A stretch of DNA of 64,000 nucleotides from Lama guanicoe. Its lineage: Eukaryota. Numbering within the stretch: the stretch's first letter is position 1; each line of letters begins with the position of its first letter. The notes under the pieces were generated by a model. The model saw only the letters and a list, made by a program, of their open reading frames with translations, was not told the origin of the DNA and searched no databases. Of the stretch, positions 15,001-42,251 are shown one piece after another. Made by a program: the position numbers and the translations under genes. The DNA lies in NCBI GenBank assembly GCA_013239625.1, contig MU053823.1, positions 689,565 to 753,564 on the forward strand, in the 5' to 3' direction.

Positions 15001-18000
15001 GAGCTGTGTGGGGAGCTCTGTGCGTCTTGTGCCCGGGCGGCTGACGCGTCCTGTGCCCCTTGCGGCATTTCTTCAGCCCGTTTGATTTTGGCCTCCCACC
15101 TCGGGCAGGCGTGCCTCTGCGCTTCTGCCTCGGGACTTTCTGACATCGTGGAAGGCCCCCAGTTAGCGAGGGGGCAGCCTGGAAGGACCGAGGAGTTAAC
15201 GGCACCTCGGGGTCAGCCCTCAAGCGCGGGGGTGGGGACTTGTGGCTCGGTGCCCTCTTGGAGGGGCAGGTTTAACCTGCGTCTCGTGTGGTTCCTCGTG
15301 GTGTTGAGCCCGGTTGCCCTCTTTCTTGCTTTCTTTTCTCACGTTTCATGTTCCCTTTCTCTGCTTTCTGGAATCATGTTTCACATAAATTAGCTACATT
15401 CAAATTTGTCAGACCCTATTTTCAGGGAATCCCAATTAAAATAACATTCTCTTTTACTGAAGGTGGGTAAAGCAGGAATCTGAGATTTCCAAAGAGTCTC
15501 AGGAAATGGATGCTCGTCCCAAGCTGGATCTGGGCTTCAAGGAAGGCCAGACCATCAAGTTGAGTATCGGGGTGAGTGTGGTTCCCCCGCCTGTCCTTGT
15601 ATTTCCGTAAGCCGATGACTTCTCTTTTGCTTTCTCTCACTCTCCTCCTTTTTTTCCTTTGTAGAACATTACAACCAAGAAAGGAGGTGCTTCTAAGCCT
15701 AAGACTTCAGGGACCGGGGGTCTAAGCTTACTGCCGCCCCCACCAGGAGGCAGAGTCACCATTCCCCCACCGTCGTCCTCAGTTGCTATCAGCAATCATG
15801 TGACTCCACCACCCATTCCGAAATCTACTCATGGAGGTAGCGATGCAGGTGAGTCTCTCCAGGGCTTTTTAAAAACTTCACCGTTTTTCATTTTGTTTTT
15901 TGGGGGGTTGGTAATTAAGTATTTACTTATTTATCTATTTATTTATTTTTCTAACTGTTTATCTGTCTATTTAACTATTTATCTTGACTGCCTGTCTCTC
16001 TCTCTCTGTTTGTCTATGGAGGTACTGGGGATTGAACCCAGGATCTTGTCTCTACCACTGAGCTAGGCCCTCCCTCCTCTCTAGTGCTTTAACTTTGAGA
16101 AATCATATCTTGGGTTTTAATTGGGTAGCACCCATTTGCCAAGGAAAGTGTTGTGGTTTTGCTATAAATGGGCACTTTGTCCTGACAGGTGATTTTGGCA
16201 GCCTCTAGCGAGGGGTTAAAGCTTTCCTAGGGAGCCGAGAGTCGTGGTTCCTGGTGGGTTCTCTGGCAGGAATTGGGTAGTTAGTAAGAAGGCTGTGTCC
16301 TTCGTGTGCCTTGCTGAAATGCTAGGAGGCCTGAGAGTCAGGCGGACCAAGGTTGTGGTCCTGGTGCTGCTACTTTATGTCTGAATGTGTTTGGTAACAT
16401 CGTTTAAGATCTGTGAGTCTCCACGTCCTTGCCTGCAAGCAGGAGACGTAAAACCACCCCAGGACCGTGAGGGTGGAATGAGGTGACGGCACCGAGCACA
16501 GGGCTTGTGAGGCAGAAGCCATTCAGCACGTGTTGTTTCTTCATCCTTCCCATTTCTCCCCAGGGGCAGTCGAGAGGAAGTGAGACAGCATCTGATTTAC
16601 GAGAACATTTTCATTTTTCCTTACTGTCTGGTGGGATAAAAGAATAGATAAAGTTATTTCCACTTAAAGAATGCAAACCTAGGACTTGGGAGGGAATTTT
16701 CCTAAGATTAGAGAATCAAGCGTTAGAATCTAGGAGTTTTGCCTTTTATCTTTAATTAATTAACTATAATTTAATTTAATGTAACTTAAGGTTTAAATTA
16801 TATCATTAGTCATTTATAATGGATGGCTGAGAGCCAGCTTTCTCTTTCTGGAATTTTTGAGCTGTAAGTGGTTACAGTCTACTTCTTTTGTAAGTGCTGC
16901 CAGAAGGCACTGAGGAGCATATCTAAGATTTATTTATTTACATTTTTTTAATTAAACCTTTTATTTTGAGGTAATTGTAGATTCACATGCAGTTGTAAAA
17001 AAAAATAGTACAAAGAAATCCCACGTACCTTTTACCTCGTTACCCTCAGTGGGACCATTTTGCAAAACTGTGATCGAATAGCCCTGCTAGGAAACTGACA
17101 CTGATACCGTTCACTGGTCTCACTTAGATTTCGTCATCTCTGTGTATTCTCATTTGTGTGTATGTGTATTTACAGCTGACCCTCGAACAACGCAGGGTTT
17201 AGGCACACTGACCCCCACCGTGCAGTCGAAAATCTGTGTCTGACTTCACAGCTGACATCTGCAGGGTCAGCCAGCCACAGATCATGCCATACTGTACTGC
17301 GTGTTTACCGAAAAAAACCCATATATAGCGGACCCCCACAGTTCAAACCCGTGTCGTTCAAGGGTCAGCTGCTGTTCTCTGCAGTTCTGTCGTGTGTGGG
17401 TTCCTGGATCCGCCCCTGTCCCCTTGGTGAGGATGCTGAACAGCTCCACCACTGCAAGGGTCCCTGGTCACCTTTTTGTAACCATACCTCCCCAGCCCCG
17501 TCCCCCCACCCCCAGTCCCTAACCCTTGCTGCTCAGTCACTAGTCTGTTCCCCATCTCTAATTTTGTCCCTTCAGGGCTGTTCTGTAAATGAAGTCACAT
17601 GGCGCATAACCTCTGGGGTTGACTTTTTCCACAGCCTGAGTCCCTTGAGACTCTCGAGTTGTGTGTATCAGCAGCTCGCTCCCGTTGACTGCTGAGTGCT
17701 GCTCCACGCGTGGGTGTACCGCGGTGCCTTCAGTCATCCCCCGTGGAAGAATGTCTGGGGTGTTTCTAGTTCTTGGCTATTATAGATAAAGCTGCTGTGA
17801 ACATTTATGTACAGATTTTTGTGTGAATGTAAGTTTTCATTTCTAGAATTTTTGTAATGTTTCCCCTTTTCTTTTTCCTTTTCTCACCTCGTGTTCAGAT
17901 ATCCTTTTAGACTTGGATTCTCCTGCTCCCGTCACAGCACCAGCAGCAGCTCCAGTTTCCGCAAGCAGCGACCTGTGGGGGGACTTCAGCACCGCACCCA

Positions 18001-18375
18001 GGTATTAGCACAGGGGAGCCAGCCTGCTCCCAGCCACGAATGGGGTCTGCGTGCGGCCAGGTGCAATCTCTGGCGTGGGGAAGCAGAGCACTCGCAGGGC
18101 ATTTGGAGCCTTCGGTAGGAATCCTGGGTGAGGAGGTGGAGGAGCCCCGGGGCGGGGGGATCAGCAGGCTGCAGGGAGAAGCCTGATGGGTGTCTCAGGC
18201 CCAGGTGAGCAGCTGCTGTGAGGTGTAGTTTCAGGGATTCTGAACAGAGATTTCCCGCAAACCTGAAGGAACAGCGTTCCTGTCCTAATACGCCTTTGGC
18301 CTTCTCTCTGTTCTCCTGCCTTGCAGCTCTGTTCCAAGCCAGGCGCCACAGCCATCCAACTGGGTCCAGTTCTGA
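8542..18375 (+). CDS. NECAP1: NECAP endocytosis-associated 1 (adaptin ear-binding coat-associated protein 1), 8 coding exons, 275 aa
   Basis: Exons 8542-8636, 13563-13663, 13819-13923, 14620-14701, 15463-15571, 15665-15848, 17899-18001, 18327-18375. All introns are GT-AG, phases are compatible, total 828 nt. Translation [54 protein letters not shown]...[16 protein letters not shown]...DLWGDF...SNWVQF* shows the PHear domain, KEG motif and C-terminal WxxF motif. Confidence 0.98.
11916..11942 (+). mobile_element. Doubly truncated SINE fragment with target-site duplication
   Basis: CTGGGTTCAATCCCCAGTACCTCCA between perfect direct repeats TTAAAATTTTGGTGTACTTT (11896-11915, 11941-11960). Confidence 0.85.
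12200..13140 (+). mobile_element. LINE-2 3' relic
   Basis: L2 hallmarks ACCTTGGAGTCATCCTTGACT, AGAGTAAAAGCCAGAGTCCTT, TAGAATGTAAGCTTCATGAGGGC, AAATACTGGTTGAAT. Confidence 0.75.
14268..14498 (+). mobile_element. MER58A-like hAT-Charlie MITE
   Basis: Terminal inverted repeats CAGAGGTTGGCAAACT...AGTTTGCGGACCCC with near-matching 8-bp flanks GTCTGTGT / GTCTGTGA. Confidence 0.8.
15885..16075 (-). mobile_element. tRNA-derived SINE (Vic-1-like), internally deleted
   Basis: ATGGAGGTACTGGGGATTGAACCCAGGA...TCTACCACTGAGCTA. Confidence 0.8.
16950..17845 (-). mobile_element. Old LINE-1 3' end (L1MB-like) with nested Tigger-family MITE at 17173-17371
   Basis: L1 blocks (TTGTAGATTCACATGCAGTTGT, AAAGCTGCTGTGAACATT). 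MITE has ~26-bp TIRs CAGCTGACCCTCGAACAACGCAGGGTT / AACCCGTGTCGTTCAAGGGTCAGCTG, preceded by TA. Confidence 0.75.
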
Positions 18376-20020
18376 AAAGCAGCCACAGGACATTAAGGAC
18401 AGACTTGAAGAACAGAGATGACCTGAGGGCGCCAATCTGTGAGGGAAGTTAGGAACCCCTTCCCTCCCCAGAGCCAAAATTACTGGACAATCTTTGTCAC
18501 AGCTGCTCCATTGCGTTCAGGCCGGTTTGTGTCCCTCCCTTACAATCATCCTCCGCTGTACAGCCGAGAAAGCATTTCTTACCTCCTGCTCACTGTCAAG
18601 GCGGGGGAAGAGCAGGTCTTATCGCGCTTGTGGCTGACCGCAGGGCTCGGAGGGCCAGGGTCTCTTTGAGGGGGAATGACCTCTAACATCTGTAACATTC
18701 TTCTCCATCTTTAAATTCATTACCTGATTTTCAGAATCATCTCATGACCCTGTGTGCCTCTTTGTGAAGCCCTGTTTAGCGATTTCAGGGGAGACAAACA
18801 CCTTGAGACCTTCTTTTCCATTAACCCAAGACTCTAAACATGGACAGACCTCAGTGTTTACAGCCTGAGAATTTTGATAGGGGCGGGGATGAACAAAGAC
18901 CCGTTTCCTGGGTCTCTGCCGTATGGCGACCCTCAGGCTCATCCTCTTCGGGGAGCGTCCGGTGCGGGTGCAGCCCCGTTGCCCTCGTGTGCTTACATGT
19001 CTCTTCCTACGATAAGAGGGTTGTGTTTGCTGCATAGTGCACCATCTTTGATCAGCGGGGGTCTCGGATGATGGGGCTTCGAGGGTCTGTGTTTTCCCAG
19101 TTACATTCAGAGAAGCATTTACAGTCTTGCAACTCCGTCCGGCGGCTGCATTTGGAGCACGGCGTTACGTTGTAACAGCCGCATCATCTGACCTAACATT
19201 GAAGGGTTTAGGATTTTTAACCTGATTTGTAGAGCAGAGAGGTTGAAAGCACTTAACTCTTGTTCGGTACCCACATTGCCTTGCTGCCTGAGTATCTGGC
19301 CCCTTTCCATGGACGTTTATTTTTTCAGTCCACTAGCTCCTCAGTGGAAAGCTGCTATGACATGTATTGTCACTTCTGAAGGGAGCTGAAGAGCCATGGC
19401 TTTGGCTGTGATAAGTTTTACCGAAATGATGGCTTTGACACCCAGGGCATCTCAAAGGCAAGTTGCTCTCCCACCACTTTCCCTTCCCCCATCCCACCAT
19501 TCCTTTTACAGTGCTGTGAAGGAGTTCCCGTTCCTAGGTGAATGGGCACCATCTATCTTGTTTGTTAATGGGGAATTTTGAGGGTAAAATGGGAAGACAC
19601 CATTTCTTCCCTTAGCTCGTGTTTGGATGTGTACACCCTGGCTGAAGGGAGTCCTTACGTTTAGTTTCAAAATAGATTCTCTCGCTCTTGGATTTCCTTC
19701 TTGACTCTTTTTAACTTTGGGTCCATTTTTCTTTTTTCCGTTGCTTCCCGTTCCAGGCAGCTCTATTCTTACAGAGCCATGGCAGGACATTTAAAAATTC
19801 CAATAGAAAACACTAAAAGGAAAGTCTGTAGAATCACTAGTGACTAACTACTGGGAACCTATTTTCTCAGCCTTCCTCTATGTTGTGTTCTTTGTATTCT
19901 CAAGATGATAATATATTATGTATTTGAATTGCTGAAAAACTGAAAATGAAGTTTAAGATATATGTATATAAAGCGTATGCTGTATTGGTGCAATAATGGT
20001 AATTAAAAATATGAAAAAAG
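18376..20020 (+). other. NECAP1: NECAP1 3' UTR with candidate poly(A) signals
   Basis: Follows the TGA at 18373-18375. AT-rich terminal block 19780-20020, ATTAAA at 20002-20007, alternative AATAAA at 20107-20112. The true 3' end is inferred. Confidence 0.6.
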
Positions 20021-22152
20021 GTAGTGTCTCTTTGATCTTTTAATTTACCTGTTTCATTACCTTTTTTTAAGGATTTAATTGACCCGATAGAGATGGGCCA
20101 GTAGGCAATAAAAGGACATTTTGTATCTATTACTCTGTTTTAAGAAATAGAGCTTTTAAGAGGTCAGACCTCTGTGCTCATGGTTCTGGGCCCGCAGAGT
20201 GCTCCTTGTGGAGAGCACTTGTATTTATTATTCATTTGCTGGTACAGTTAATTTCATTTGCTTCAAATTATCTTCACAATCTAGGCCGCCTCTCACGTCC
20301 TACTACCCTGCTCAGCGTACATGAGGGGAACAGTGCACGAGGTGGAACTAAAGTGGGAGGCGTGGGCTTTGGAAGCCAGAAGGATCTCAGGATTCTCATT
20401 CAGTGATTGTCACGGAGATGTATCAGAACGATGTATGTTTGTTTGTTTGAATTTAAAGTACCATGTACTGCTCTCTCCAGAGTCTAACTTCCCCCTTGGC
20501 CCTCCCGGGGAAGGACTTGGATGGCTTCCCGACCCGGGACCTGAGGTTGTGAGGCACTGTCACCGACTGGAGCGTATCCTCGACCTCAGGTTTTGTTTGG
20601 TGGAAAATGCAAACAGTGATTTTCCCAGCTCAGCCCCCTCAGTGAGGCTCTGACACCTGCCTTCTTCACGGCTGTAACGTGAGCCCTTACTCCCGCTCTC
20701 GCCTCCGGCCTGATGAGCCAGATAGTCGGCTTCCTCTAGCTGCCCGATTCAGCTTGTGTGTTGCCACCAGAATAATCTCCCTGAAACCAAGCCCTGCTCA
20801 CGCCCCTTCCTCCCCCACTGATTGTCTCATGATCTTCCTTTGCTTGCAGATTAAAGTCCAAAGTACCATTTCATCCTCAACTCTCAGTTTCCCCCTTCAC
20901 TCAGTAGGCTCCAGCGCACTAGGGTGCTGGTCATTCTTCAGGTGCTGCCAGCGCCGTGGGCACTGGATGCTTGCAGTTCCCTCTGCCTAGAATGCCTTCC
21001 CTTTCTTCCCGGCTCATTGAAACTCCCCCACTCCGGGAAAGCTAGCCTAAGTGCTGCGATGCCCGCAGTCTGAGAGATGGTCTCCTTGTTTTGTGTGGGT
21101 TGCTGTTGAAATTCCCTTGCTTAGTAGTTTGTAAGCTCTTTGATACAAGGACCACGTCTTCATTTTTACCTACTCAACAATACTTCCCGTGTACCTTTCT
21201 AGATGGTAGATGCTCCTTAAATACTGGTTGAATTAACAGTGATTTCAGCGGAGAGAGACTGGAAATGAGTAAGCTGGGTGTTTTCCTTTTATTACTCAGC
21301 CTCGTTTTGGTTGTTCCTAGCTGCAGGGCGGAAGTACCCCTCATATGCTTTGTCATTGTTGCAGAAGGTCTCATTTATATACTCCAGAGTCAGTGAACAT
21401 TCGAGACCAAGAGAGGAGTGATGAAGACAAATTTTACTTTGGTCCATAGACCCTATGGCCTGAGAAAAGGAAAACGGGGCATCATGGAGCGCAGCGGCTG
21501 ATAAATTTGGTAGCTTACTATCTCACTGTGATGATCACAACTGGCTAAGATTACAGTGCACTCTGGTTATGTTTTAGTTTTTCCTTTTCTTTTTTCTTTT
21601 TTTATAGTCATTTCTGTTGCTGCCTCTTAACTGTACATGAGGAAAATACATACGGTCTGTGACTGGAGACCTCATCCTTGGGAGCTCCCCAGTAGCCACA
21701 TGCTCTTTTGAGAAGGAAAGGGAAAAGGGAGAATTACATTTACTCGCAGGTCCCCGAAGCCTGGGGAATGGGTAGGCTTCTTACGGTTTTCACAGCAACC
21801 GTGGTTGAAACCACATGGCATTTACTTCAGAATTTTGCAAGAATTGTCATTTTCAGCCCCTTTTTGAAAGTTATCAAGATACGGGGGGTGGCATGTTTTG
21901 TAAAAAGCTCTAGTATACTCGAATTGCCTACCTCTGAGTCAGGAGTAAAATTTATCCACTGAGACCTCTTGTCAAGCTAAGATTACTGTCACCCCGTAAG
22001 TTAAACACAATAATGCACTAACACCCCCTATGGATGTTTTTGCTTGCTTTTCACAGTTCTCTTTTTTCTTACTATGTGTGCTCTAGTGCTGCACCTATGA
22101 AAGGAAGAAAAGAAGGTCATTGAATCAGTTTCTGGTGCATAGCCGCATGGGA

Positions 22153-22166
22153 CCACTAGAGGGCGG
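22153..22166 (+). promoter_or_regulatory. CTCF core motif with upstream-module-like sequence
   Basis: CCACTAGAGGGCGG preceded by TGCATAGCC, within a locally CpG-retaining patch. Confidence 0.65.
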
Positions 22167-22604
22167 GCTCCCCCGCAACTCCAGCGCAGCCTAGGAAATA
22201 CCGCTCAGCTTTCCCGGCTGGAGAGGCACAAATTTTGCTCTGCCGCTTATTGGCTTTTTGACCTTGGACGACGTAACTTTCGTTTGCCTCAGATTCCTCG
22301 CATTGCAAAATGAAGATCAGAGTTTCTACTTTATAGAGTAATTGTGAGAATAAAATAAGCTGAGAAGCCCTCCTTCCCTTTCTACCTACCTATCTCTATC
22401 ACAGTATTGTGTGCTGATAACACTTTAACTTTGATTGCATACAAAAAATTTACCCTTTGTATTCCTCCTTTTGTGTTTCTTTCTTTTTTTTTTTCTTTTT
22501 GCCCATGAAGTTGATGTCGTCTGGTTCCCACCTCTCTGCCCTTTATTGTCACTTTTTTTTTTTTGCCTATAGAGTCTGTAAATCTGTTCATTATATATAT
22601 ATTT

Positions 22605-22935
22605 TGTGGGGGGAGGGGAGGAAAGAAAAGAGCAGCTTTATTGCCTTGCCTGGCAAAGGGAGTCACAGCAGGCTAATGCCTTAGAGACTGTGAGCCCATC
22701 TTAGGATTGGGGTCTTGAGAGGTTTTATAGAAAAACTGGACGGAAGAGAAAAGGTGATAACAATCAGGGCGTTTTACAGGGAGCGCCATTCATCTTAACT
22801 TCCATGGATCTTCAGGAGGAACTCCGGAGGGTCTGTCCATTCTTCTGAGATTATCAGCCTGTTTCTTCCTCCCTGGAGCAGAGCCTCTGGGTGAATGTTA
22901 TCCTCAGTAAAGACTGAATCAGAGAACAGTTTTGC
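22605..22935. mobile_element. ERV LTR fragment
   Basis: AGCAGCTTTATTGCCTTGCCTGGCAAAGGG...GGCTAATGCC resembles recalled ungulate ERV1-type LTRs. Confidence 0.45.
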
Positions 22936-23889
22936 ATCAGGGAAGTCTGTTTGTTCATTATATTTTTAACCATTACTCTCTAAAGCTTATCAAAGTAATT
23001 AGAGCAATTTAAAATTCAAATAATCCCAGAAGGTTTATAACTGAAAATTATGGAAGTCTTGATTATTATTCTTTGTGGGAGTTTAATGGAGGCATCATAA
23101 ACCAGCAATGGAAAAACAGAACAGTTTTGATTCTTCCAATAACTGATATCAACTTATCCCTCTTTTTAAGAGCAGGGTCAGAGGAAGAACAATATGGCAG
23201 TTGGTTTTCTTAGTTCTTTTCAATAAACACCAGTCTTTTCCAATAACTGGCTGTCAAGTCCAGCCTCTGGAATGCCAGCCCGAGGGCCTGTCAGGGCTGC
23301 TGATGCTGCCCCGTCTGCTTGCCTGCCACACTTCGTGGGCTTCTGCCTCTTGGGAGCACCTGGTGTCTGTGTTGTGTGCTCTCTGTGCGCGCAGTTCCGG
23401 CCCCTGCTCCGGGTTATGATGGGCCCGCACACAGCGCCCTCTCGTCTCCATTCAGTGATTCTATCTCATCCCTTCTGGATATGTTCCTTCCTCTTTAACT
23501 GAGGTGTCTCTCACAAGCTAGACCACTGACACCTCTTTTTGATCATCTCAGTGTCCTCGGTACCTCCTACCAGGAAGCATTTCTAAGTCCCTTTCTTGCT
23601 CTCCTGGAACAGGGGGTGGTAAGGGTCTCAGGGTCTGTCACTATTGCCATCTCAGCACAGGGCACTTCTCGGAGCATCAAGCCAGGAGAAACCCCACTGA
23701 GAATGGGTGCTTCGCCTTGCGTTCCAGATTTACTCAACTCTCCGAGAAACTGATTGCAGCAATAACTCTGATTGGTCCACACCTTCTTGTAGAATTTGTA
23801 GCTTCTACACTGACCCTGGGCTTGACAATGAGAAATGCTTTGACCAATGAAAGACAACCTAATGTGAAGCAAGCCCAGGTCTGAAACAT

Positions 23890-24186
23890 GCGTGTGCACT
23901 GAACTTGCCCTCTAGCTTCTCCTGGACCCCTGCTGGAGGATGGAGGCCACAGGGAGCCGACGTCCGCTGTCCCAGTTGGGGTCATCTTAGCTGCGTGCAT
24001 GTCAATCTGGCATCTGACCATAGAGACATGAGCTGAAATCAGCCACACCTGACTCAAACCAGAACTACCCAGCTGAGCACAGCCTAACTTGCCAAACTCT
24101 CAGGAATTTGAGCTAAATAAATTCCACAAATGGTGGTTGTCTTAAGCTACCAGGATTTGAGATGGTTAGCAAAAGGTAATTGATAC
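23890..24186 (+). mobile_element. MaLR (MLT1-type) LTR 3' part
   Basis: CCAGAACTACCCAGCTGAGCACAGCC...TAAATAAA...GGTTGTCTTAAGCTAC...TAATTGATAC. Confidence 0.65.
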
Positions 24187-24434
24187 TCTCACAAGTAATT
24201 CTATTTTGTAAAAAAAAAGAAGAAATGTAACAAAACAGAAACAGAGTCATAGATAGAACAAACAGGTGATCTTCAGAGAGCTGGGGTTGAAGGAGATTCA
24301 GCTTTCTTATAAATTTCTTTTTTCTTTAGGAGATTTTAGTAGGCTTATTTTTATTATTGGCCAATGAAAAGACTTAAGACACAGGTTACAGAGAAAACAA
24401 GAAGTATGAGATTGACAACCTGAGAAGGATTAGA

Positions 24435-26522
24435 ATGGAATCTAAACATGTTGTGACTTAAGTGGACAGCCGTACCCTTAAAAGGAAAGGTAAGTATGCC
24501 TTTGACTGTAAAAGAAACACAGATTGAGCGTCCGATCCCAGTTTCCTAAGGATATCACCTTCCGTAGGTGATCAGTCAGTAGCCTGGAAGTCTGGGTGTT
24601 ATCTGCCCACGTGGAAAGAGTCCTTTGGCTACTGTCCTTGACCACAGCCTAGCATCCAGGGAGCCACAGCAGCGCTCCGGGGAGAAGGGCAGACCTTTGG
24701 TGTTGGGCTGGACGTGCTCACCTGTGGGCACTTCCGGTTTACTTGGGTTTTCTGCCCTCCGACGAGCATATTGCCACAAATCTGAGTTCTTTACTTGCTC
24801 CACCAAAAGGAGAAGCTGTGGGTCCTCCCTGAGTCGCTGGATTGTTGCCGTGGTTGTCATCCTGTTTGTCTACACCGGTTTCATCACTACTGTAGCTGGT
24901 GTGCATCTTTCCTTTTCCTGCCTCTTGCAGATGCTTTTTTTAGTGTAGTCCAGTCATAACTTCCATACTAGAAACGTTCGTTTGTTTGTTTTTTTCCCAA
25001 CTTGCTTTCCTTATTTATTCATTAATTTGTATTTCTTTCTTTCTTTTTCTTTCTTTAATGGAGGTACTGGGGATTGAACCCAGGACCTCTATGCGTGCTA
25101 AGCACACGCTCTACCGCTGGGCTACCCCCCCCCCCCCCCCCCCGAGGTGTGTTCTTACTCCCTGTGAATCTGTGCTTTTCGCTCCTCTGTCAGTTGGTGT
25201 TTATTAGGGGCTTCTTATCTGATGAAATGCCCTTCTTTTCTCAGAGGAACTATAATCCAGTGGTTAACAGAACGGCTTCCCCGCCGCGCTCTCTAGACCT
25301 GAATTCCAGTCCTAGCGTACCCTCCGTGGGAGCTCAGGCAAATTTTTACCTTTTCAAAGACTTGGATATGTTACTTGTAAAAGTGGGGAAATAATAGTAC
25401 ATACTTCATTTTGTGAAGATCATACAAGTTAATTTCTGTTTGGTATTAGAACAGTGCCTGGCATGTCAACAAATGTGAGCTATCACTGCTTTCGAGGTTT
25501 TTTCTTATAATGCGCCGAGGTCATCGCTGGCATCAGCTGGTACTCATATTCTCCCAGGTGTATTGCTTGGGTTACTTCCGTGAACTCTTTTTTAACTAAC
25601 GGGATTTTTTATCCTTCCCACCAAGCTCTCTGTAGCAGTCTAAATCTTTGTGTATGTGTCCTTTTGAAAAAATAAAGTATTTCATTTTTTGATCAATCCT
25701 TGAAGTATTTCCAACTTTGGAAACTATTAATACAGTCTATCTTCTTCATTAATTTCAAGGGCACATGAAAAACTCTTAGTGCCATCCAACGTGTGTGTGA
25801 CTCATCTTTCTTCATTTAATGTAAGAGTTCTGTTGTAACTATGGTCTTTTAATGAATTATTTTACATTTATATGCTCTTTAATTATGGTCAAATATAATT
25901 TGGTCATCAAAAAAGAAATGATGGTTTAAAAGAACTAGGTGTTACTAAATGTGCTAAAAATACTCATTTTGTAATTTTAATTTTTTGTTTTCTTAGGATT
26001 TTATAAATTATGCCCTTTAGAAAAATATATACATCAAAATCCCCATATTGTATCTGTAGTTTTTTGATGCTATGTACATAAAATATGACACTTTCCTTGG
26101 TCCAAAATTTCACTAACCAGAATTCTGTTATGGGCACTTCAACACAGCTTGAGGAAAATGGCACAATATGATCTTGTGGTGCCTTCTGAATCATCAGAAA
26201 GATTAAATTATGCTTCATATATATATTCGTTTTTACTGTGTTTCTTTGAAAACTCTCAATCTTTACTCATGAGTCATTGGACTAATTTCTTTGACCTGTT
26301 AATTTGAAGTCTTATTGCATTGCTTCAGTTCATGAACTACAAACATTACTCTTGGTTGGTTTTTTACTTCCAAATAACTTCTGTGATCCTGCTGGCACTA
26401 CTATTAGAGGCATTTTGGTCTCATTTGCGTGACTTCAGTATAAGAACATTTGTGCAAAAGAAACTATTTTCCTGCACAGTAATAACATCAATGATGGTGA
26501 CTGTTCCTACAGCACAGCGTAC
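24435..26522 (+). pseudogene. Decayed Dectin-2-family (CLEC4-type) C-type lectin pseudogene, exons 1-4
   Basis: Exon 1 24435-24489 MESKHVVT*VDSRTLKRK with AAG|GTAAGT phase-1 donor. Exon 2 ~24806-24898 RRSCGSSLSRWIVAVVVILFVYTGFITTVA (93 nt, same size as CLEC4D/E exon 2; expected acceptor reads AA). Exon 3 from 25997 GFYKLCPLEK...F*CY. Exon 4 ~26374-26522 *SCWHYY*RHFGLIC matches the WSCCPxxWxxFxxxC spacing. Confidence 0.6.
25020..25143 (-). mobile_element. tRNA-derived SINE (Vic-1-like) with poly(C) run
   Basis: ATGGAGGTACTGGGGATTGAACCCAGGACC...TCTACCGCTGGGCTA followed by a long C run. Confidence 0.85.
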
Positions 26523-28654
26523 ACCGGAATGGTCAATGATAGCTTTCAAAGTTTCTTAAAATAATTTGCCTAATTTTATTTTTATGACCCCCTCATTGAG
26601 GATGGGGAGAAGAAAGAACAGAATTGTGCTTAGGGATAAATTTCAAGTGTTGATGTACAGTGTCAGGAGTGGCGGGTGTGGCAGACACCTAAAGGTCCAG
26701 TGAAAGATCTGCATAATGAGTCCAACTCAACCTGTAAGACCTTCTTGTTAGGGATCGGTCTATGAAGCACCCATTCTTGTCATCCACTCCTTTCTCTAGC
26801 CTTTTCCCACTGTGTTTACCAATGTCGACCTCCTGCAAACTCAGTCTTGCTTAGTTTTTGTGTTGACCTGAGCAGTCATACAGGACATCCGCTCCTCTAA
26901 TTTGTAGGGCTGAAATGAATTTTGCTGCTCAAAGACTTGGTATCTCCAGCACAAGTTATTTGCCATGTCTATGAATTTTGAAGTTCTTTACCCTGTCTTC
27001 ATAATACACTCCCTCCTCACACCAATATACCCATTTTCATCCGTTTCATGTGATTAGGGTTCTGGCCCAGTTTTTCTGCCCTTAAGTCTGGCTCTGGTTT
27101 CTCGTTGAGTTTTAGATCCTGTGCTGGAAACTGCTCAATTGGCACTCAGTCTTCTCCTTTCCAATCCCCTCCTTTGGCTGTTCTCTGTACCTGAAAACAT
27201 GTTATCAAGACTCTCAGTGTTATTACTTGTCTGATTTCAAATATGACCAGTGGCTTGAACATTCTCTGGCTGAGTCCTGCTGACTCCGGATTTTGATTTC
27301 CTCAGAGACTGATAATATTTTCAATCATGGCTATGTTAGACGTGCTTTCTGGACATTGTATAATTGATTCCTCATTCTCATTCCTGTGCTATAATGCTCT
27401 CAAAAGAGAGGTTAGCTTTTGCCATTGTAATCCTTTAATTTCTAGTACTGACTTATGTACTCTTGCCAGTTTGGGTAGTGTGGAACAATAGGAAGAATGC
27501 AAACTCTGAAATCATAAAGGCCTATTGTCAAAATATGCACAGGATGACGACTCAAATAGTGCAAAAGTGTTCATGATGGAAAGCAGGTCTCTCACACCAT
27601 CCTTCCCTACCCTAGCCCTATAGTCCTATCGTGCAGAGGTGAATTGTTTTAGCTGTGGGTTTTTTGTTTTGTTTGTTTTTTTTTGTCTTTTGTTTTTTAC
27701 TTTCTGGTGATTCCCCCCCTCCCCCCATGAATCTAAATAACACTAGTATCTCCATTTCTGAATATTATAATCTGGTACTCCTTGCTCCCCTAATTCTTTT
27801 TCATTTTCTATCTTCACCTTCTTTCACATTTTGATAATTAAATGGTGATTATTATTATTACCTTTAGTTATTAATTGATTGGTTACTTTTGTACCTCTAA
27901 ATAATATTTTTGTTCATTTATTTTTTGTGTTGTATCTCTACTGAAATGAAAATGGTTGCTCCTACACTCCCCTCACCTTTCTTTTCACTTGTACTTCTTA
28001 CCTTTTGTCAGCCACACTTCTGACTTTACCTCGTCAAGTTTGTTAACCTTTATGAGTTCCTGTGTTTTGTACAGAGGCTGACTCAAGGCAAAAAACTTCT
28101 AGATGATCATGAGTCTCTTGGGTCAAAGGATGGGCTAAGATTATGTTTGCTTCTCTGGGTCCCACATCTCAATTCTGATTTGTTCAAAAGAGATGGCTCC
28201 TATCACTAAGGTCAAATGGAGTCTGTTTGCTTAGATTCCAGAAGTTAGTTTAACTAAAGCCACATTTTGATTTGCTTCCTGAATTGGACTCTACTTATTC
28301 ATATAGCTTCTTTTCCTGGTATTGCTAATTCCTTTTTCTTGGATAATTTGTTTCTGTTAAACTCTTGTTTTTCAGCTCTTCCAATTAGCCTGTCTATTAC
28401 ATGGTGCTCAGTTTTAATCTGGTTTTCTCAGAGCCTTCCTCTGCTCCTCGGTACTGGACTCATGGTTCTCTGCACCTGTTTGCAGAGCTCATCTATGGAC
28501 GTCCCTTCCTGGCTCTCCTGGTTTAGATCTTTTTTGTTTTTTTTTAATACTGTTGTCTTTTTGTTGTTATTACAGTAGGTATAATTCTGTATACAAACTT
28601 AGGTGCGCAATTAATACCACATTCTTTTCCAAATGTTAAAATTTTATTAATTTA

Positions 28655-30895
28655 AAAAAAATTGAGATATCATTTATTTATGGCATTATGTAAGTTTCAC
28701 ATGTACAACATTATATTTCAACTTCTGTATACACTACAGCATTCTCACCACTAAAAGTTTAGTTTCCAGCCGGTAACATAAAGATGACCCCCCTTACCTA
28801 TTTTACCCTTCCCCTCTGGTAACCACTACCCTCTTTTCTGTATCTATGTGTTTGTTTTTGTTTGGTTTGGTTTCTTTCTTTGTTTAACATATAAGTGAAA
28901 TCATACAGTATTTGTCTCTCTCCATTTCACTTACTTCATTTAGTGTGACACCTCAAGATCCATCAGTGTTGTCACAAATGGCAAGATTTCATTTTTTACG
29001 GCTTAGTAGTATTCCATTATATATACACATTTTTAAAATTTTTCTTTTTTTTAAATTGAAGTATAGTCAGTTTACTATGTTGTGTCAATTTCTGGTGTAC
29101 AGCATGATAGTTCACACATCTACATACATATATTCGTTTTCATATTCTTTTTCATTATAGGTTACAAGATAATGAATATAGCTCTCTGTGCTATACAATA
29201 TAAACGTATTATTTATCTATTTCATATATAGTAGTTAGTATCTGCAAATCTCGATCTCCCAATTTATCCCTCCACTACGTCTTTCCCCCCTGGGAACCGT
29301 AAGTTTGTTTTCTATGTCTGTGAGTCTGTTTGCTTTATAAATAAGTTCTTTTGTGTCTTTTTTTTTTTTCTAGATTCCACATATAAGTGATATCATATGA
29401 TATTTGTCTTTCTCTTTTTGGCTTACTTCACTTAGAATGACGATCTCTAGGTCCATCCATGTTGCTGCAAATAGCATTATTTTATTCTTTTTTTTATGGC
29501 TGAGGAGCATTCCATTGTATATATATATACCACAACTTCTTTATCCAGTCATCTGTCGATGGACATTTGGGATGTTTCCATGTCTTGGCTATTGTATATA
29601 GTGTTGCTATGAACATTGGGGTGCATGTATCTTGTCAAATTAGAGTTCTCTCTGGATATATGCTGGATCATATGGTAAGTCTATTTTCAGCTTTTTAAGG
29701 AACCTTCGTATTATTTTCCATAACGTCAGCACCAAACTGCAATCCCAACAACAGTGTAGGAGGGTTCCCTTTTCTCCACACCCTCTCCAACATTTATCAC
29801 TTGTGGACTTTTCTGGCCATTCTGACTGGTGTGAGGTGACACTTCACTGTAGTTTTGATTTATGTTTCTCTGATAGTCAGTGATATATAGCATTTTTTCA
29901 TATACCTATTGGCCATTTGTATGTCTTCATTGGTGAATTACTTGTTTAGGTCTTCTGTCCATTTTTGGATTGGGTTGTTTATTTTTTTGTTTTTAAGTTG
30001 TATGAGCTGTTTATATATTCTGGAAATTAAGCCTTTGTCAGTCATATCATTTGCAAGTATTTTCTCCCATTCTGTAGGTTGTCTTTTTGTTTTTGTCTGG
30101 GTTTCCTTTGCTATGCAAACCTGCTTACAAGTTTAATTAGGTCCCATTTGTTTATTTTTGCTTTTATTTCTATTGCCTGGGTAGACTGCCCTAGGAGAAC
30201 ATTGCTAAGGTTTTTGTCAGAAAATGTTTTACCTATATTTTCTCCTAAAAGGTTTATAGTGTCTTGTCTTATGTTTAAGCCTTTAAACTATTTTGAGTTT
30301 GGTTTTGTGTAGGGGGTGAGAGGGGTGTTCTGTGCTGAGCCCCGGGGGGATAGCTGGTTAAGAAGTGTTTCACTGTTTGCTACAGTCCTTGACCTCAAGC
30401 TCCACTGGCCACCAAAGCCAGGCAATAGAGGAGTGTATCCCGTGGGTGAAGTGATAAAGTCTTGGTGCCAGATGTGTGTTCAAGCTCGTTCTAGAAAGAC
30501 AGTGGTGACTCAGATGGCACCTGCTGGTCTCCCTGGGCTCTGAGGAGGATAGAAGTCTGTCCCAGTTGTGTGCTCAATTAAAAGCCTGACCCTCAGGCAG
30601 CAGCTCTTAAAGTTTGCCAATAGGCCTCTTTCTGGGAAGGAATGGGAGATAAGCATTTCTGTCTCTTGCTTCTGTGTTGGCTTTGGTGGGGTGGGGAGTA
30701 GCGCACAGTTGATTGAGAACTCTTTCTTTGTCTGCTGCAGTCCTGAGGGACCCATAAATGCAAACCTCGGTGACCACTAGAGATGAGCAGTCAAAGGTTG
30801 TATCCTTTGGATGGCAGCCACGAAAATCAGGGAGCCAGATGTGTGCGCAAGCTCCTTCCAGGAGATGCTGGCAACCTGGACTGGAGCAACTTCAC
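28655..30895 (-). mobile_element. Composite LINE-1: older 3' end (28655-29030), younger 3' UTR + ORF2 end (29040-30312), L1 5'-UTR-like segment (30316-30895)
   Basis: Two successive T-rich-headed antisense L1 3' ends. ORF2 antisense blocks run to GAGTTTGGTTTTGTGTA, then switch abruptly to a GC-richer, internally repeated segment (GCCAGATGTGTG.CAAGCTC at ~30467 and ~30834). Confidence 0.75.
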
Positions 30896-31153
30896 ATTCC
30901 CTCTTCCTTTGCCTTAACAAGTTTATTTTCTCCCATCAGAAGATTTGGGGATTTAAGCAACAGCTCCACCACCTTTTCCTCAACTCCTCAACAAAAGTTC
31001 TGTGTCTTTACAAACATTGCTGTGTAGATTTAAAGCTTTTGCTTATTGCTCACATTGTCTTTTGTCATTTTTCATACAACTTATTCAGTTCCGAGAACTT
31101 TCTAGGGCAGGTTTACCTTAAGAACGTAACTGCCTTTGAAAATTCAGTTCTCA

Positions 31154-31250
31154 GGGGAGGGTACAGCTCAGTGGTAGAGTGCATGCTTATTGTGCATGAC
31201 GTCCTATGTTCAATCCCCAATGCCTCCATTATAGAAAAAAAAAAAGAAGA
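31154..31250 (+). mobile_element. tRNA-derived SINE (Vic-1-like) just upstream of CLEC4D exon 1
   Basis: GGGGAGGGTACAGCTCAGTGGTAGAG...GTTCAATCCCCAATGCCTCC + A tail. Confidence 0.85.
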
Positions 31251-31703
31251 AAATATAATATTCAGGAAAAGAAAACCTTGAGGAAAATTCTGTTTTTTAT
31301 TGGGTTCAATTATTATTCTTTTAGGGCACTGCTAAATTTTTTGTTTGAACGACTAAAAACAAATTAAGAAATTTTACATGACACATTGGTCTGGTTACCT
31401 CAACGTACTTGTGAAAATTTCTACTGTTTCTGAGTGTTGCTTTCTCAATTTCCCTTTTCCTTTGCTCCAAACCAGAGTGAATCAAAGGAAACCTCAGTCT
31501 TTGAAAAGACTTCTTCTTTTCAGTTGTCTTTTATACGGGAATGTTCTAGTCTTACCAGAATAGGTAAGCTTAATGTTCAACCTCAAGAATTTCTAAATGT
31601 ATGTATGTTTTATTCACAGAAATATACCCTGTGGAAAAAATATAAACAGCTGCTCAGGCTACTGGTTCTCCCAACTACTGGACCATAAGAGATTTAGCAC
31701 ACA

Positions 31704-34700
31704 GTAGGGCAAGAAGAACCACAAAATAATCGTGAGTACTTTTTCCCCTTTCAAGTTTAACGAGGGCATACTTGATTATGACAAATATTTTAAAATATGA
31801 ATTGATGACAGTTGTAGTTGTGAAGATTGAAAGATGATGGGGAAAAAGAGGTTGAGGGATGTGAAAATGATTTTGGTAAAGAGGAAGGACTTAGATTCAT
31901 ACATTTGGAGTACCAGTAACTTGTTTATGAAATGTAAATTGGGGCAAGAGAGGAGAGAACGTCTGTAAAAATAAGATGAAAAAAAAGAAAGTTGGGAAGA
32001 TTCTTTTTAAGGGAAGAGGGAGAAGAAAGATACAGAAAACACATTGGCTGAGGCAGCAGTGTGTCTGAGGCTCTTACTTCATCTTCGTTTATGTTTTACT
32101 TAAGTGAAACAAATGAATTTGTATTATAAGAACATTAAAAAATAGCTTTGAGAAATATATAGAATGAATGCAGAAATATGTAATTTAAAAATTAATGTTT
32201 CACTTCATCGCATTACGCCACCCAAATTTCATTGACATCATGATGTACAATGGTCCTGAAAACCACCTTTTTGTGTAACAATATGCTTGGAGATTTTTTT
32301 TTGCCAGTACATACACATATAGTTGATTATCTTAATTGCTGTATAGACTTCCATCATGTGGATTCACCATAATTTAGAATCTCTGTTCTTGATGGTACGT
32401 ATCCAACTATTAGATTCCAGGGATTTTTTTTTCTATTTCCAAAATTACTGCAATGAATATTCTTTTTATAAATAAGTTATTTCTATAGGGTGGATATCTA
32501 GAATTGAAATTATGGCAAGTGTAATGCATTTAAAATTTGATAACTGGGGGGAGAGTATAGCTCAGTGGAAGGGTGTGTGCCTAGCACTGGGTTCAATTTC
32601 CAGTACTTCCACCAGAAATAAATGAATAAAAACATAATTACCCCCCCAAAACCCCCAAAATAAAAACAAAAACCAAAAAAAGAATAAAACAAATGCAGTA
32701 CTTTAAAAAAATTGATAAGTGCTTCTAACTTGATCTGTCTAAAAAGCTTTCTAATTTACTATTCAGCAGTGACATTTATTTCCTTACTGAGTGTTTCCCT
32801 CTGTCTCACCAATACTATGTATTTTCAATTTACTTTAAAAATTCTGATATATGAAAAATCACACCATAATAATATTTTGGTTTACATTTCTCTGAGCACG
32901 CTTCTTGTTTGTTTAATGGATTTTTAAAATAATTTCAGCAAGTTAGATTTTCAGCAAATTTCCTGCTCAAATGTTTTGCTCAGTTTTCAAATTGTTTTTT
33001 GAAATTCTTTATACAGTCTGGATATTAATATTGTGACAAGATTTTTCTTTCATATATTCCTTGTGTTTTAACATTATTTGTGTTATTTAGAAGTTTTGAT
33101 TTCTATGTCCCCAAATTATCAATATTTTGTGATTTGGGGGTTTTGAGTCTTGGTTATAAAAAGCCTGTCCTTATTCAAAAACTCAAAAAAGTTGTTTACG
33201 TTCTTCTTATTTCTTCCTTATTCATCGGTGAGCTCTGAAATTGATTTATTTAGGAAAAATCTTTAAGCTCTCCTCCAGATCTGAAATATTTTGGACAATC
33301 CATCCTTAGTTTGCTCCTTGGTAGAATTTACTTCCCTGGTTCTGGTAGCTAAGAACGAGACAAGCTAGTTCTCTTGTTTTTGTACAGGAGGAGGCGGCCA
33401 GCACCCCCGGCTGATCCCTTGGGCCATGGCTACTGTTCTCATCTCACTTCTAAGTGCCTGTTTTATTGCAAATTGTGTGGGTAAGTTATTAGCAAAAGTG
33501 GAACTCTCCTTGAATTATTTACCCGAGCAACTTTTATAAAGTTGCTCTGAATCTTTTGTTATCTTGATTTTCTCCCACATATCAATCTGTAATGATTTAA
33601 AATTCAGGGTCTTGGATTTAAAATTCAGAGCTACATGCTTGACCTTCTGTTCTTTTATGATGCTGCTTTGTATCAGGCAATGAAAGATGGAATTTAGACC
33701 CTTTTCAATACATGTGAAGGTTGGTGACCGTTATTAAGTGGTAAAAGTGAAGCAGAGCACAAAGTACTTTAAAAGCCATGGCATGGTTACCTTTAAGAGA
33801 AAGGGTGGGAGTTGAGTTTGGGCTCCGACAGCCACCTGGGGTGTTGGCAACACTGTGTTTCCTGAGCCCATCATTTTTACCCGGAATACTCGCTTTACAA
33901 TAACTTGATAAACTGTACACTTATGATTTCACTTCTTTAGATTTGGTTATATTCCAAAGTAAAAATATTTAAAAGATAAATAAATGTGTCAGGCTCATAG
34001 AACTTTGCAAGACTATCCCAGTATTCACCAAAAATCTCCACTCTAACACAAATTCTGATGGGAAAAGATGCTTAAAAGCACACGCACATGAAGGTTTGCA
34101 AAACTACCCCCACAAAGCACAGAATGGACCATGTGATGTGAAAAATATTAATCTTCAACAATTCCTCTCAACCAATACATCTGGAATGGGGACAAAGGAG
34201 CTGCGAGGGAAGAACAGAGAACGTGGGGGCTTTACTAGGGCAAGAGCAAGTTTAGAACAGTTGGCCCCGTTTCCCTAATTGAGTCATTTTATAGGGAAAA
34301 AAAATTAAGTTTTCTTCCTCCTCGACAGTGACTTATCACAACATTCTACGCTGTGAGAGAGTCTCGGGGGTGTTCAAGCCACCAAAGTACTACCCAAGGC
34401 TGACATGTGTCGCAGGGAAATCAGCACTGAAAGTTACAGGTAACAAGGAGCAAAAGAGAGTTTCTTTCTTATTTCTATTTCCATTCACATTCATAATCTG
34501 ATTTAAAATAATTTGTTAATAAGCCCGAGAAATTAAAATAACGTAAGATGAGAATCTGGCATGAGAGTGAACACCAGTAAATTGAGACAGAATTCTTCCT
34601 CATGATATAATCAGTGGAATGATTAACTGGAGAACAGAACACATTTACGGGCCCTTTTTGGCATCAGAAACATAGCATCAATTCCATTTTCTTTTCAGTC

Positions 34701-36899
34701 AGATATAGCATAAGGACTGTTTCCTCTGAGAATGTATAGCTTTGCCAAAATGTCTGTATCTCCTTTATTATTCTGGAGTTTGTAAAGGCTCGTTTGGGAG
34801 AATGAGGGGAAGTGCACGAGAGTTTTAGCAGGTTCTTTGCCTCCGTCAGACAAGATGTCCTGCAAGAGGCTTTATTATGGAAACACTTTAAATGTGATTG
34901 TAAATGGATGTAAGGACTGAAAAATGACCATGCCTTCTGAGAGAACAGCCTGTAATTTTCTCACAGTCGCTATGTGATTCAGATACTTTTGTCTAGAAGA
35001 TATTCAGAAATGTAATTTTCGGGATTTTTTAAGGGTGGACAGAGTGATTTCAGTAATCCTGGTTTTATCCTCATAAATGTTAATCGGACATGAGGCAGTG
35101 GAATAGTTATGCAATGTGCTACAGATGATGTGCTCCTGTGCAACTATTTTTATTTCGATTCTCACAGGAGAGGGAGCCTGGCATTGCTGCCCTGCTGGCT
35201 GGCGAGCCTTTCAGTCCAGCTGCTACGTTCCACTTACCGACAACAAGACGTGGGCTCAGAGCGAAAGGAACTGTATAGGGTTGGGGGCTCACCTGGCCAC
35301 CATCAGCACAGAAGCTGAGCAGGTCTGCTGGGAGGCGCACATCAGTTTCTCTGCTGGTTTGAATCTCTTTGCAGAGAAGGAGGAATTTCTCTGCTCTGCT
35401 GTGCCTGTGTGCCTTTGCTTCATCTATTCCATCCACCTGGAAAGACCTTCCTTCCTCTCTCACTTCTCTTCTTATGGCCAACCTCTTCTGGTCTTCCATG
35501 ATTAGATTCATGCATTATTTCCTCCAGAAAACTACCCGACCATCCTCCCTACCCCATCCGCCCTGTTCTAATTTGGAGCCCCTCCCGGGGTGCTCTGTGC
35601 ATCGTGGGAGCGTGGCCCTTGCTCCAGCGTGTGCAATCGTCCTTTCGCTACTCCAGCTCTTCCAACGACTCCTCCTCTGTGGAGGGCTGGAGCCACGCCT
35701 CACGCATCTTTGCATCTCCAATGGCCTGCACGGTGCTAGGCACACTGCATAGATCTTAATAAATGTTCAGTGGTAAGTAAATAAATGAATGATTCATCAG
35801 GACTGAAATGGCTTCTCAGGATAAAACACAGGAAAAATAATTCAAGTGTATGGTTGTCATTCTAAAAAAAAAATCTCAAGGTAAATTCAATTCTGAACTG
35901 AAACTTATTTCCTCATGTAATATATTTCCATGTCCGTGCCAGGACTCAGATTCCACTCCTTTCTTGGTTAGCAGGGTTTCCTGGATTCCGTGTTCATGGC
36001 TTTGTGACCTACAGGTTCACCAACTCTTTGAATAAAAAGGAATTTAATGAAATACACGGTTAATGAAGGCAATTTTAAAAACAAAAGTTCCTAAAAATCC
36101 AACCCTGTTAAGCACTGGGCTAAGTGACTTGAAAGCTGAGCTCAATCTTGCACAGCAATTCTGTGAAGCTGCGGCGTTGTCCCTTTTGGAGCTGAGAAAA
36201 CTGGGGTTTGGTGAAATTAAAGCACTGATTAATAGTACACGATGAATGTCAGAAGCAGATTTGAAAACAGACCTGGTGCCAACGCACTGGTGCTTAACGA
36301 GTAATTTATTTGATCTCTTTCCTCTTTTTCTAACATAACAGCTTTCCCGTGGTAAATACAAATATACTTATAATAATTCACATTTTTATACAGAACTTTA
36401 TTACTCAGTTTTTGGATAAACGGTTTTCCTATTTCCTGGGACTCACAGATGAGAACCTTGAAGGCCAGTGGCATTGGGTGGACAAGACACCGTTCAACCC
36501 ACAGATGGTGTGAGTATACAGACTGGGGTGAAGGAGCTTTATAGGCAAAGGTGAGAAGACAGCAAGGGGAATTCATCCTGGGGGAGCACACCCCCGTAAG
36601 GAAGACTGCTCAGAACAGAGCACTGTGTGCTGAGTGGCCGCCACACCAGGATGCAGCTCGAAACTGTTCCCCAGGAGCACTTTCCTTGCTTTGCCCTCTG
36701 CCCTATTTTACACACACACACACACAATTTTTTTCATTCCAGATTCTGGCATGAAGGTGAACCCAGCAACTCTCAGAGAGAAGACTGTGTTGTCCTTGTT
36801 AATGACCAAGACAAATGGGCCTGGAAAGTTGTTTCTTGTAACGTTGAGACAAGTAGGATTTGCAAGATACCTGGAAAGGATTCAGCTAGAAACCTGTGA
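31704..36899 (+). CDS. CLEC4D: C-type lectin domain family 4 member D (MCL/Dectin-3) orthologue; canonical start lost, probable start at 33426 (about 197 aa), or incipient pseudogene
   Basis: Exons 31704-31731 ([11 protein letters not shown], donor GTGAGT), 33388-33480, 34329-34439, 35168(or 35171)-35322, 36394-36509, 36743-36899, all GT-AG and in frame. [35 protein letters not shown]...[83 protein letters not shown]. Lies tail-to-tail with CLEC4E as in other mammals. Confidence 0.9.
32546..32712 (+). mobile_element. tRNA-derived SINE (Vic-1-like)
   Basis: GGGGGGAGAGTATAGCTCAGTGG...GGTTCAATTTCCAGTAC; degenerate TSD AAAATTTGATAA / AAAATTGATAA. Confidence 0.85.
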
Positions 36900-40605: not shown

Positions 40606-42251
40606 TTAGGGGCCAAAATAAATCTTAACAGTGGTTTATTTGAGGAATACGGTCTTGGGAATATGAATGATTAATTATTCTTTTATTTTTTGTAATGTTC
40701 TGGGTTTTCTGGTTCTTATGTATTTGTGTAGCCCTATTTATAAAATGTTATATTTTAAAAGTTTCAACTGGATGCTCTGCTTCTTAAAGAAGAATTTTCC
40801 AGATAAATAATCTAGGTTCCAATGACCTTTACTCTAACCACTAAACCCTTAACAATTGTTTCTTTCCTTGCCAAACTTTGAAGACAAAGTTGGTTGTATA
40901 ACCTAAATCCTAAGTAAATGGGGAAATAGCACACATTAATATTTTTATGTCTTTCAATATTGAAATAAAATTTAAAATAATTATAGCCAACTGAAGTGTA
41001 ACAACAATGAATAAAAAAATTTATCATGTTTTCAATGTTCCCTAAATTGATGTTTACAATATGAAAAAAGAAATTAGAAATATATAATTTATTTAATATA
41101 GAAATATATAATTTATATAAATAGAAGATATATTTATTGAATTACTTTCAGGTTGAATGACTTGTTTTTAAAGGCATATTGACTTCAAAACCACAGATTG
41201 TCACTTTTGACTAAGAGAAATAAATGTTTGTAAAGAAAGCTAACATATGCACTTGTTCTGTTGAATTTTCCCATTCAGTGATTACATGTTAATTACAACG
41301 TATGAATTTTGAGGGTCTCGTTATGGGACTGTGCGCAAGAAACATGGTTATAAAATCTGCTGTGTTACTTACATATTCTTGAATAAACTTATTGGTACTG
41401 ATAGACTATCATGCAGTAAGTGGGCAGGCTTGAGACAGGTAAGTGTCAAGTTGAATATTCTCTTAGAATAATTTGATTGTTGGACTCTGGCTCTGGCTGA
41501 GCAATAGATATAAATTCAGGTGAGACCCAGTTAGCCAACGGAAGGGAACAGAGAGGAAGGTGAGTTTCTGGGACGAGAGGACTGGAGGACAGTCTCTTTG
41601 GAGCTGATTGTTAGCATCACCTTTCTAAGAAGGGGCAGTAAATGCCTTTGGCCAGGAAGTCCACCCTAGTCTCTTGAGCAGGAATAAGTTTCATGACTTG
41701 ACAGTGTTTCCTACTTATTGTGCAGGAGAACAAATTGAGGATATACTCTTGAGTAGGGGGTAAAAGACAGTATGAAATCAAGAAGAGAAGACAGAATTTT
41801 CAGAACTAGAAAGAAGACAAATTGACAGAGCCCAAATTCAGGTGATTGTTTAAAGGCACTTTCCAAAATTCTCTTCTTGGCTGGATTCTGTACTTGTTCA
41901 ATGTCCCTGTATTTTCGTATGAATACTCGCAAATGAAGCAAAAGTACCAAAAGACATTCCTTTCTTCTCACAGCATTGCCAGAGAAACTTGGTAAATTCT
42001 GAGAAACCCCAAGACTGATGTAGAGAACAACGCACTTCAGTCAGTATCATGAATTATATTTCATTCAAAACTACTCATTTTTATTGATAGCAAGGCAACA
42101 AATACTTAATGATGTCCTTATAAAGTGCAACGCACGCTTTTCTCATATTGGAGCTGTGCAGCTGTTTGTTTACGCTCTTGTTACATAGTTCAGTTATGAT
42201 TCTCAGTTAAATATTTAAGTTATGCCTTCTGTGTTGGAGATTTTTCTTTGT

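Follow-up and report, generated by a model that had tools for sequence, protein, structure and literature searches.

Apparent loss of CLEC4A and CLEC6A from the Dectin-2 gene cluster of the guanaco

Introduction

Which receptors of the Dectin-2 cluster does the guanaco (Lama guanicoe) retain? The order expected of the genes concerned is NECAP1-CLEC4A-CLEC6A-CLEC4D, in which CLEC4A encodes DCIR, CLEC6A Dectin-2 and CLEC4D MCL; CLEC4E encodes Mincle. We analyzed a stretch of 64,000 nucleotides (GenBank assembly GCA_013239625.1, contig MU053823.1, positions 689,565 to 753,564 of the forward strand), hereafter the window. A sequence-only reading of this window had noted merely about 11.5 kb of gap-free DNA between NECAP1 and CLEC4D, with no exon carrying EPS/EPN and WND motifs, and had proposed a lineage-specific deletion of CLEC4A and CLEC6A; with MCL altered, Mincle might be the only conventional receptor of the cluster here, with a bearing on antifungal and antimycobacterial immunity. 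According to passages of PMC11624271, Dectin-2 senses high-mannose fungal and mycobacterial glycans via FcR-gamma, while DCIR carries an ITIM (immunoreceptor tyrosine-based inhibitory motif) and restrains dendritic cells. We thus asked whether either gene can be recognized at its expected site and, if not, how its absence is best explained.

Results and discussion

No intact exon of CLEC4A or CLEC6A at the expected site

The distance from position 20020, the likely 3′ end of NECAP1, to codon 1 of CLEC4D at 31704 is 11,684 bases, and there is no N in this interval or anywhere else in the window, in agreement with the spacing read earlier. In this assembly, the DNA from NECAP1 to CLEC4D was confirmed to hold no intact exon of either CLEC4A or CLEC6A.

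20020..31703, no strand: interval without intact CLEC4A or CLEC6A exon, about 11.7 kb, expected site of both genes

A six-frame motif scan of 20020-31500 revealed no C-type-lectin exon, and the EPS, EPN and EPD triplets within it all stood in a non-lectin context. For scans with hidden Markov model (HMM) profiles, the window was translated in all six frames and split at stop codons, which gave 3,466 peptides with 12 or more amino acids; 604 of these overlapped the interval. The profile made from CLEC4D alone (29 of 50 proteins, picked by a length of 195-240 amino acids) recovered the three CLEC4E lectin exons as a control (E 1e-20 to 2e-5); its best match among the interval peptides had an E value of 1.7, with nothing below. 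The CLEC6A profile combined 12 of 17 named ruminant and hippo CLEC6A sequences, which had been reached via a peccary gene model with a Dectin-2-like stalk. It recovered every one of the six lectin exons of the paralogues (E 1e-17 to 3e-4), whereas its best interval match reached only E 8.1, and no CLEC6A lectin exon with EPN and WND was found in the interval. Tblastn with peccary and ruminant-like stalk peptides gave no match to a Dectin-2 stalk exon at E < 0.3 in the whole window. For the CLEC6A transmembrane exon, the best profile score in the interval was 6.6 bits, a value reached by 17 of 40 shuffles. Pfam likewise returned no Lectin_C match in 60 of 61 scanned interval frames of at least 60 amino acids; both control exons matched Lectin_C. 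Motif, profile, stalk and Pfam scans, the last three with working controls, agreed with the earlier observation that no EPS/EPN-WND exon lies here.

Lectin exons of CLEC4A, which were probed only through the paralogue profiles and Pfam, were likewise not found in the interval. Against human DCIR, exon 4 of CLEC4D reaches 39.9 bits on its own, so that one would expect an intact exon of DCIR to be visible; the best lectin-part score in the real interval was 2.8 bits. Sensitivity was estimated by planting CLEC4E exons in 20401-31500 and searching with a profile devoid of CLEC4E (threshold 12 bits, at least one exon, 25 trials). Intact exons were recovered in all 25 trials, and recovery fell to 23/25 at 10% decay, 15/25 at 15%, 11/25 at 20% and 3/25 at both 25% and 30%, so that heavily decayed remnants could escape. 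Intact or young-pseudogene exons of CLEC4A or CLEC6A in the interval are unlikely. Blastn of the interval against the remaining window sequence yielded nothing beyond repeats and brief chance matches. Among 50% representatives, most of the matches were to lectins with several domains and to fragments of CLEC4E, with no recognizable CLEC4A or CLEC6A, and a metagenome scan for mammalian CLEC6A DNA hit one unrelated locus at 30% identity.

A probable germline deletion

Both genes occur in related mammals. The cattle cluster comprises CLEC4A, CLEC4D, CLEC6A and CLEC4E (excerpt of PMC10235688), and we found named CLEC6A protein sequences for ruminants and hippo. In the pig, CLEC4A transcripts are present and the CLEC6A gene is absent (parts of PMC3658956 and PMC8395819). 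The presence of the genes in outgroups is thus supported by cattle for both genes, by the pig for CLEC4A and by hippo and ruminants for CLEC6A. Because the ancestral artiodactyl can be inferred to have carried both genes at this site (cattle has both, the pig CLEC4A), the DNA would have been lost and not merely decayed. Germline deletion of both CLEC4A and CLEC6A is, in our assessment, the probable explanation: one or more deletions would have removed the two genes, probably in the camelid ancestor or stem, with a composite LINE-like block (long interspersed nuclear element) at 28.6-30.9 kb as a candidate breakpoint. Mincle would then remain the only receptor of the cluster with a standard calcium/sugar site, and MCL would be kept, if at all, as the partner chain of Mincle and not as a lectin. 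Of the proposed lineage-specific deletion, the absence at the locus and the presence in outgroups stood; the term lineage-specific has to be qualified, since pig, dog, rat and marsupials have lost Dectin-2 as well.

As a side observation, two gene models of the Chacoan peccary showed open Dectin-2-like transmembrane and stalk exons joined to an MCL lectin domain, and the N-terminal part of one matched the human Dectin-2 stalk in the PDB. Two readings offer themselves: annotation bridged a CLEC6A that is partly deleted and so produced a chimera, or the peccary has a natural fusion gene.

The flanking genes

The first gene downstream of the interval encodes MCL.

31704..36899, + strand: CLEC4D (MCL), 6 exons, open over 219 codons, with EPS and WKV; codon 1 is GTA
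31704-31731, 33388-33480, 34329-34439, 35168-35322, 36394-36509 and 36743-36899, + strand: CLEC4D exons

Its closest structure match was human MCL. Exon sequence 35170-35322 was 100% identical to an alpaca record and 94% identical to a dromedary record, and between the joined model and the alpaca protein only 3 of 219 positions differed, which places the window among the South American camelids. The sugar-site motifs EPN/EPD and WND are replaced by EPS and WKV in the window, as they are in all four parsed camelid CLEC4D records (alpaca, wild Bactrian, dromedary and Bactrian), so that the altered MCL noted earlier holds for the window and for each of these records. By established C-type lectin chemistry, the calcium site that binds sugar loses most of its ligands with the EPN and WND residues, and on motif criteria CLEC4D does not classify as a calcium-dependent sugar-binding lectin. 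The motif survey covered 20 parsed of 29 selected records, 4 camelid and 16 non-camelid; among the latter, the D of WND was kept in 14 of 16, and EPS, KPS, WKD and WSD also occurred. We further observed that WND reads WKD in pig and warthog CLEC4D and WKV in camelids, both groups seemingly without Dectin-2, and WSD in musk deer. In wild and domestic Bactrian camels (three records), a nearly invariant cysteine of the CLEC4D lectin domain is changed to arginine, giving CRP for CCP, which may be read as another sign that constraint on the MCL of camelids is relaxed.

The 5′ end of CLEC4D deserves separate mention. Codon 1 (31704-31706) is GTA, while seven camelid protein records all begin with MGQEE, and the first in-frame ATG, in strong context, is Met23 inside the transmembrane exon. 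For the GTA codon three readings are conceivable: this allele may have lost its start, the assembly may be in error here, or an upstream exon may be spliced to the AG before codon 2. Two ATGG|GT sites in 20300-31700, 8 and 10 kb away, were considered as such an exon and rejected, as neither was supported. Exon 3 seems to offer more than one usable donor (34436-34439), which fits camelid isoforms with a difference of two or three residues where the stalk ends. Human and rat MCL pair with Mincle (sections of PMC10234441 and PMC11624271); by analogy, such pairing could hold CLEC4D under selection despite the absent sugar site.

Mincle itself is encoded further downstream on the opposite strand.

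42250..46739, - strand: CLEC4E (Mincle), 6 exons, open over 212 codons

Its best PDB match was Mincle, and it retains EPN, WND and the transmembrane arginine. With EPN, WND and a frame open over 212 codons, it classifies by the same motif criteria as a calcium-dependent sugar-binding lectin, as the label of a conventional Mincle had implied.

On the upstream side, the reading frame of NECAP1 is open across 8542-18375 with GT-AG splice sites, and the top PDB match of its exon 2 was NECAP1.

8542..20020, + strand: NECAP1, intact, 8 coding exons, 275 codons, likely 3′ end at ATTAAA 20002
8542-8636, 13563-13663, 13819-13923 and 14620-14701, + strand: NECAP1 coding exons 1-4
15463-15571, 15665-15848, 17899-18001 and 18327-18375, + strand: NECAP1 coding exons 5-8

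NECAP1, CLEC4D and CLEC4E have the same order and orientation in human as in the window.

Alternative explanations

Three features of the interval are listed first.

24800..24899, + strand: hydrophobic stretch, possible but unproven transmembrane-exon remnant, aligning in register with the family transmembrane exon
25030..25140, - strand: what we take to be a tRNA-derived short interspersed nuclear element (SINE), one of many copies in the window
28620..30900, - strand: composite block, presumably LINE-1-like, candidate breakpoint or misjoin site; its outer limits are likewise our assumption

The genes might have been inactivated first and then partly deleted, leaving decayed pieces, with the same functional result and another history. 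The stretch at 24.8 kb is a candidate for such a piece: it stops at a GT in the same place as the family transmembrane exon, was the top non-exon match of two full-length profiles (E 0.25-1.7), and ranked first in the interval when DNA of CLEC4E exon 2 was the query, with register and orientation agreeing. As a proven remnant it had to be rejected, its DNA score being reached by 8 of 60 shuffled queries and its profile score by 15 of 40 and 13 of 40 shuffled intervals for the two profiles that it topped; it was also absent among the CLEC6A profile matches and had no atlas match. A strong GT donor (AAG|GTAAGT) in 24380-24490, about 310 bases upstream of the stretch, may be chance or part of the same remnant. 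Other weak signals were attributed to chance, namely a CLEC4D exon-3 DNA match at 27992-28132 (half a point better than all 60 shuffles, located on the wrong strand, one of 11 exon tests), a match of the CLEC4E transmembrane profile in frame 22761-22907 (10.2 bits, reached by 1 of 40 shuffles, one of four profiles) and four sub-threshold Pfam matches in the interval. The joined Dectin-2/MCL model of the peccary hints at partial loss in a related lineage, and the recovery of planted exons in only 3 of 25 trials at 25% decay leaves room for old remnants; the 23 of 25 recovered at 10% decay argue that a young pseudogene would probably have been visible. We thus regard stepwise loss with surviving remnants as unlikely.

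Had the assembly been misjoined or collapsed, with the join in a repeat such as the LINE-like block, the true locus would be longer and at least one of the two genes would still be present in it. This block is the leading candidate for a true breakpoint and at the same time the likeliest misjoin site. Its sequence character seems to shift near 30320, it had no Pfam match, and we found no convincing target-site duplication, the longest words common to both ends having 7-8 bases, which would suit a misjoin. To other copies in the window it is only 67-81% alike (29046-30162, for instance, and its counterpart on the opposite strand, 39391-40588, are 75% identical over about 1.2 kb), and collapse does not usually act on repeats of such low similarity; moreover, the window has no N and the flanking genes are complete. 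Precedent exists, as the Dectin-2 cluster was absent from early pig assemblies despite existing transcripts (part of PMC3658956). Sequence runs were informative for part of the interval: when words were sampled from 20100-28560, a share of 0.79-0.94 occurred in each of 19 of 24 listed runs (nine studies, six organism labels), one of which may be the source of the assembly itself. The remaining five, which showed no share or had no index, were left out of account. Sequence 20100-28560 is real DNA common to many animals.

Annotation of the dromedary offered a further comparison. A kidney table of at least 19,300 Ensembl rows (supplement file 10 of PMC8222267) names CLEC4E, CLEC7A, CLEC10A and CLEC12A and contains neither CLEC4A nor CLEC6A among these rows; a second annotation-based table, itself incomplete (supplements of PMC9508118), also has neither name. 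NCBI gene numbers in both sets of supplements follow the chromosome, with GDF3 ending in 174, NANOG in 175, NECAP1 at 105098179, CLEC4E at 105098182, RBP5 ending in 185 and C1R in 187. Two numbers, 105098180 and 105098181, thus lie between NECAP1 and CLEC4E, and neither was found in the files searched. As CLEC4D would take one of them, CLEC4A and CLEC6A cannot both sit in this series, which, though not exhaustive, leans mildly to a loss common to Old World camels. The absence of both names from the dromedary lists speaks against a misjoin; the spare number speaks for it. On balance we hold a misjoin to be quite unlikely.

Finally, a rearrangement might have carried CLEC4A, CLEC6A or both, intact, to another place in the camelid genome. 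Gene order around the cluster differs between human and other mammals, which would be compatible with a move, and our search was confined to the window. NECAP1, CLEC4D and CLEC4E nevertheless keep the human order and orientation, and the two dromedary tables, both incomplete, lack either name. Relocation thus appears improbable, the least expected of the explanations considered here.

Several points weigh against a deletion of both genes and have to be set beside the evidence for it. All exon searches were confined to the window. DCIR was probed only via paralogues, with no CLEC4A protein among the queries, and the CLEC6A protein searches scored only two and five candidates, the latter search missing even human CLEC6A, so that the lack of a camelid match carries no weight. 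Word sharing among the runs reports presence and not contiguity, is blind to a single misjoin and covers 20100-28560, not 28560-31700 with the LINE-like block. At least three genes lie between CLEC4E and RBP5, where the dromedary series has two numbers; the series therefore skips genes, and behind the number left over in the span from NECAP1 to CLEC4E there could be a locus resembling CLEC4A or CLEC6A. The table of PMC8222267 also lacks the names CLEC4D and CLEC9A, which makes it incomplete and its silence weak. Motif drift in MCL, moreover, is common in mammals to judge from the records surveyed, with camelids at the far end among those seen. With these points included, germline deletion of CLEC4A and CLEC6A remained the reading that we favor.

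Implications and comparison with known systems

If the deletion is real, a livestock family would be a natural double knockout of Dectin-2 and DCIR, predicted to lack the ITIM brake of DCIR as well as the detection, via Dectin-2/FcR-gamma, of high-mannose glycans from fungi and mycobacteria. DCIR1-deficient mice show autoimmunity and better control of tuberculosis (excerpts of PMC11624271). The choice of adjuvant would be affected as well: Dectin-2 ligands are predicted to be ineffective and Mincle ligands effective in animals that are widely immunized for nanobodies. The immune effect of Dectin-2 loss may be buffered, since rats live without Dectin-2 and redundancy among fungal receptors has been suggested (part of PMC10234441). 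Until the deletion is confirmed, this is a modest result in comparative immunology. The wider view, that camelids are a placental lineage without Dectin-2 and DCIR in which MCL has turned into a non-lectin partner, its start codon lost in some animals, within a near-single-receptor, Mincle-only cluster, is possible, and we advance it tentatively and with some doubt.

Gene loss in the Dectin-2 cluster is already known as recurrent; the loss of DCIR together with an eroded MCL would be the new part. We found no paper on the camelid locus or on DCIR loss in a placental mammal in a search that left subscription journals and bioRxiv supplements, with possible gene-loss tables, outside its reach. 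A term search of the available text of a 2026 review of camelid immunity (PMC13343275) gave no mention of Dectin-2-cluster receptors; the accessible portions of a paper on the camel natural killer (NK) complex (PMC6614441) contain neither 'dectin' nor 'NECAP1', and those of a veterinary lectin review (PMC7403975) do not contain 'camel'. None of six gene names occurred in the supplements of PMC7468183, PMC6598621 and PMC9855979, and PMC4473062 contributed nothing further.

Comparison with cattle, pig, rat, dog and marsupials places the guanaco locus among known variants of the cluster. In cattle, the same family is present and CLEC4D and CLEC4E are likewise kept, while the window has no intact exon for two of the four genes. 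The pig is likewise an artiodactyl without a CLEC6A gene, and its MCL has also lost the N of WND (WKD); it differs in having kept CLEC4A and in an MCL that retains EPN and the D, whereas the window has no DCIR exon and an MCL with EPS and WKV. The rat carries several DCIR genes. Like the dog, it has lost Dectin-2 with MCL and Mincle kept; in the window, by contrast with the recognizable Dectin-2 pseudogene of the rat, no remnant passes a test and DCIR is apparently absent too. These losses have been described as a Dectin-2 pseudogene in the rat, in a paper that invokes redundancy (sections of PMC10234441), and as a dog without Clec6a and a marsupial cluster made up of Clec4e only (part of PMC13076529). 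Marsupials thus likewise have Mincle as the sole conventional member, but they have no Clec4d at all and split off before the placental gene set, whereas camelids keep an open, though altered, CLEC4D.

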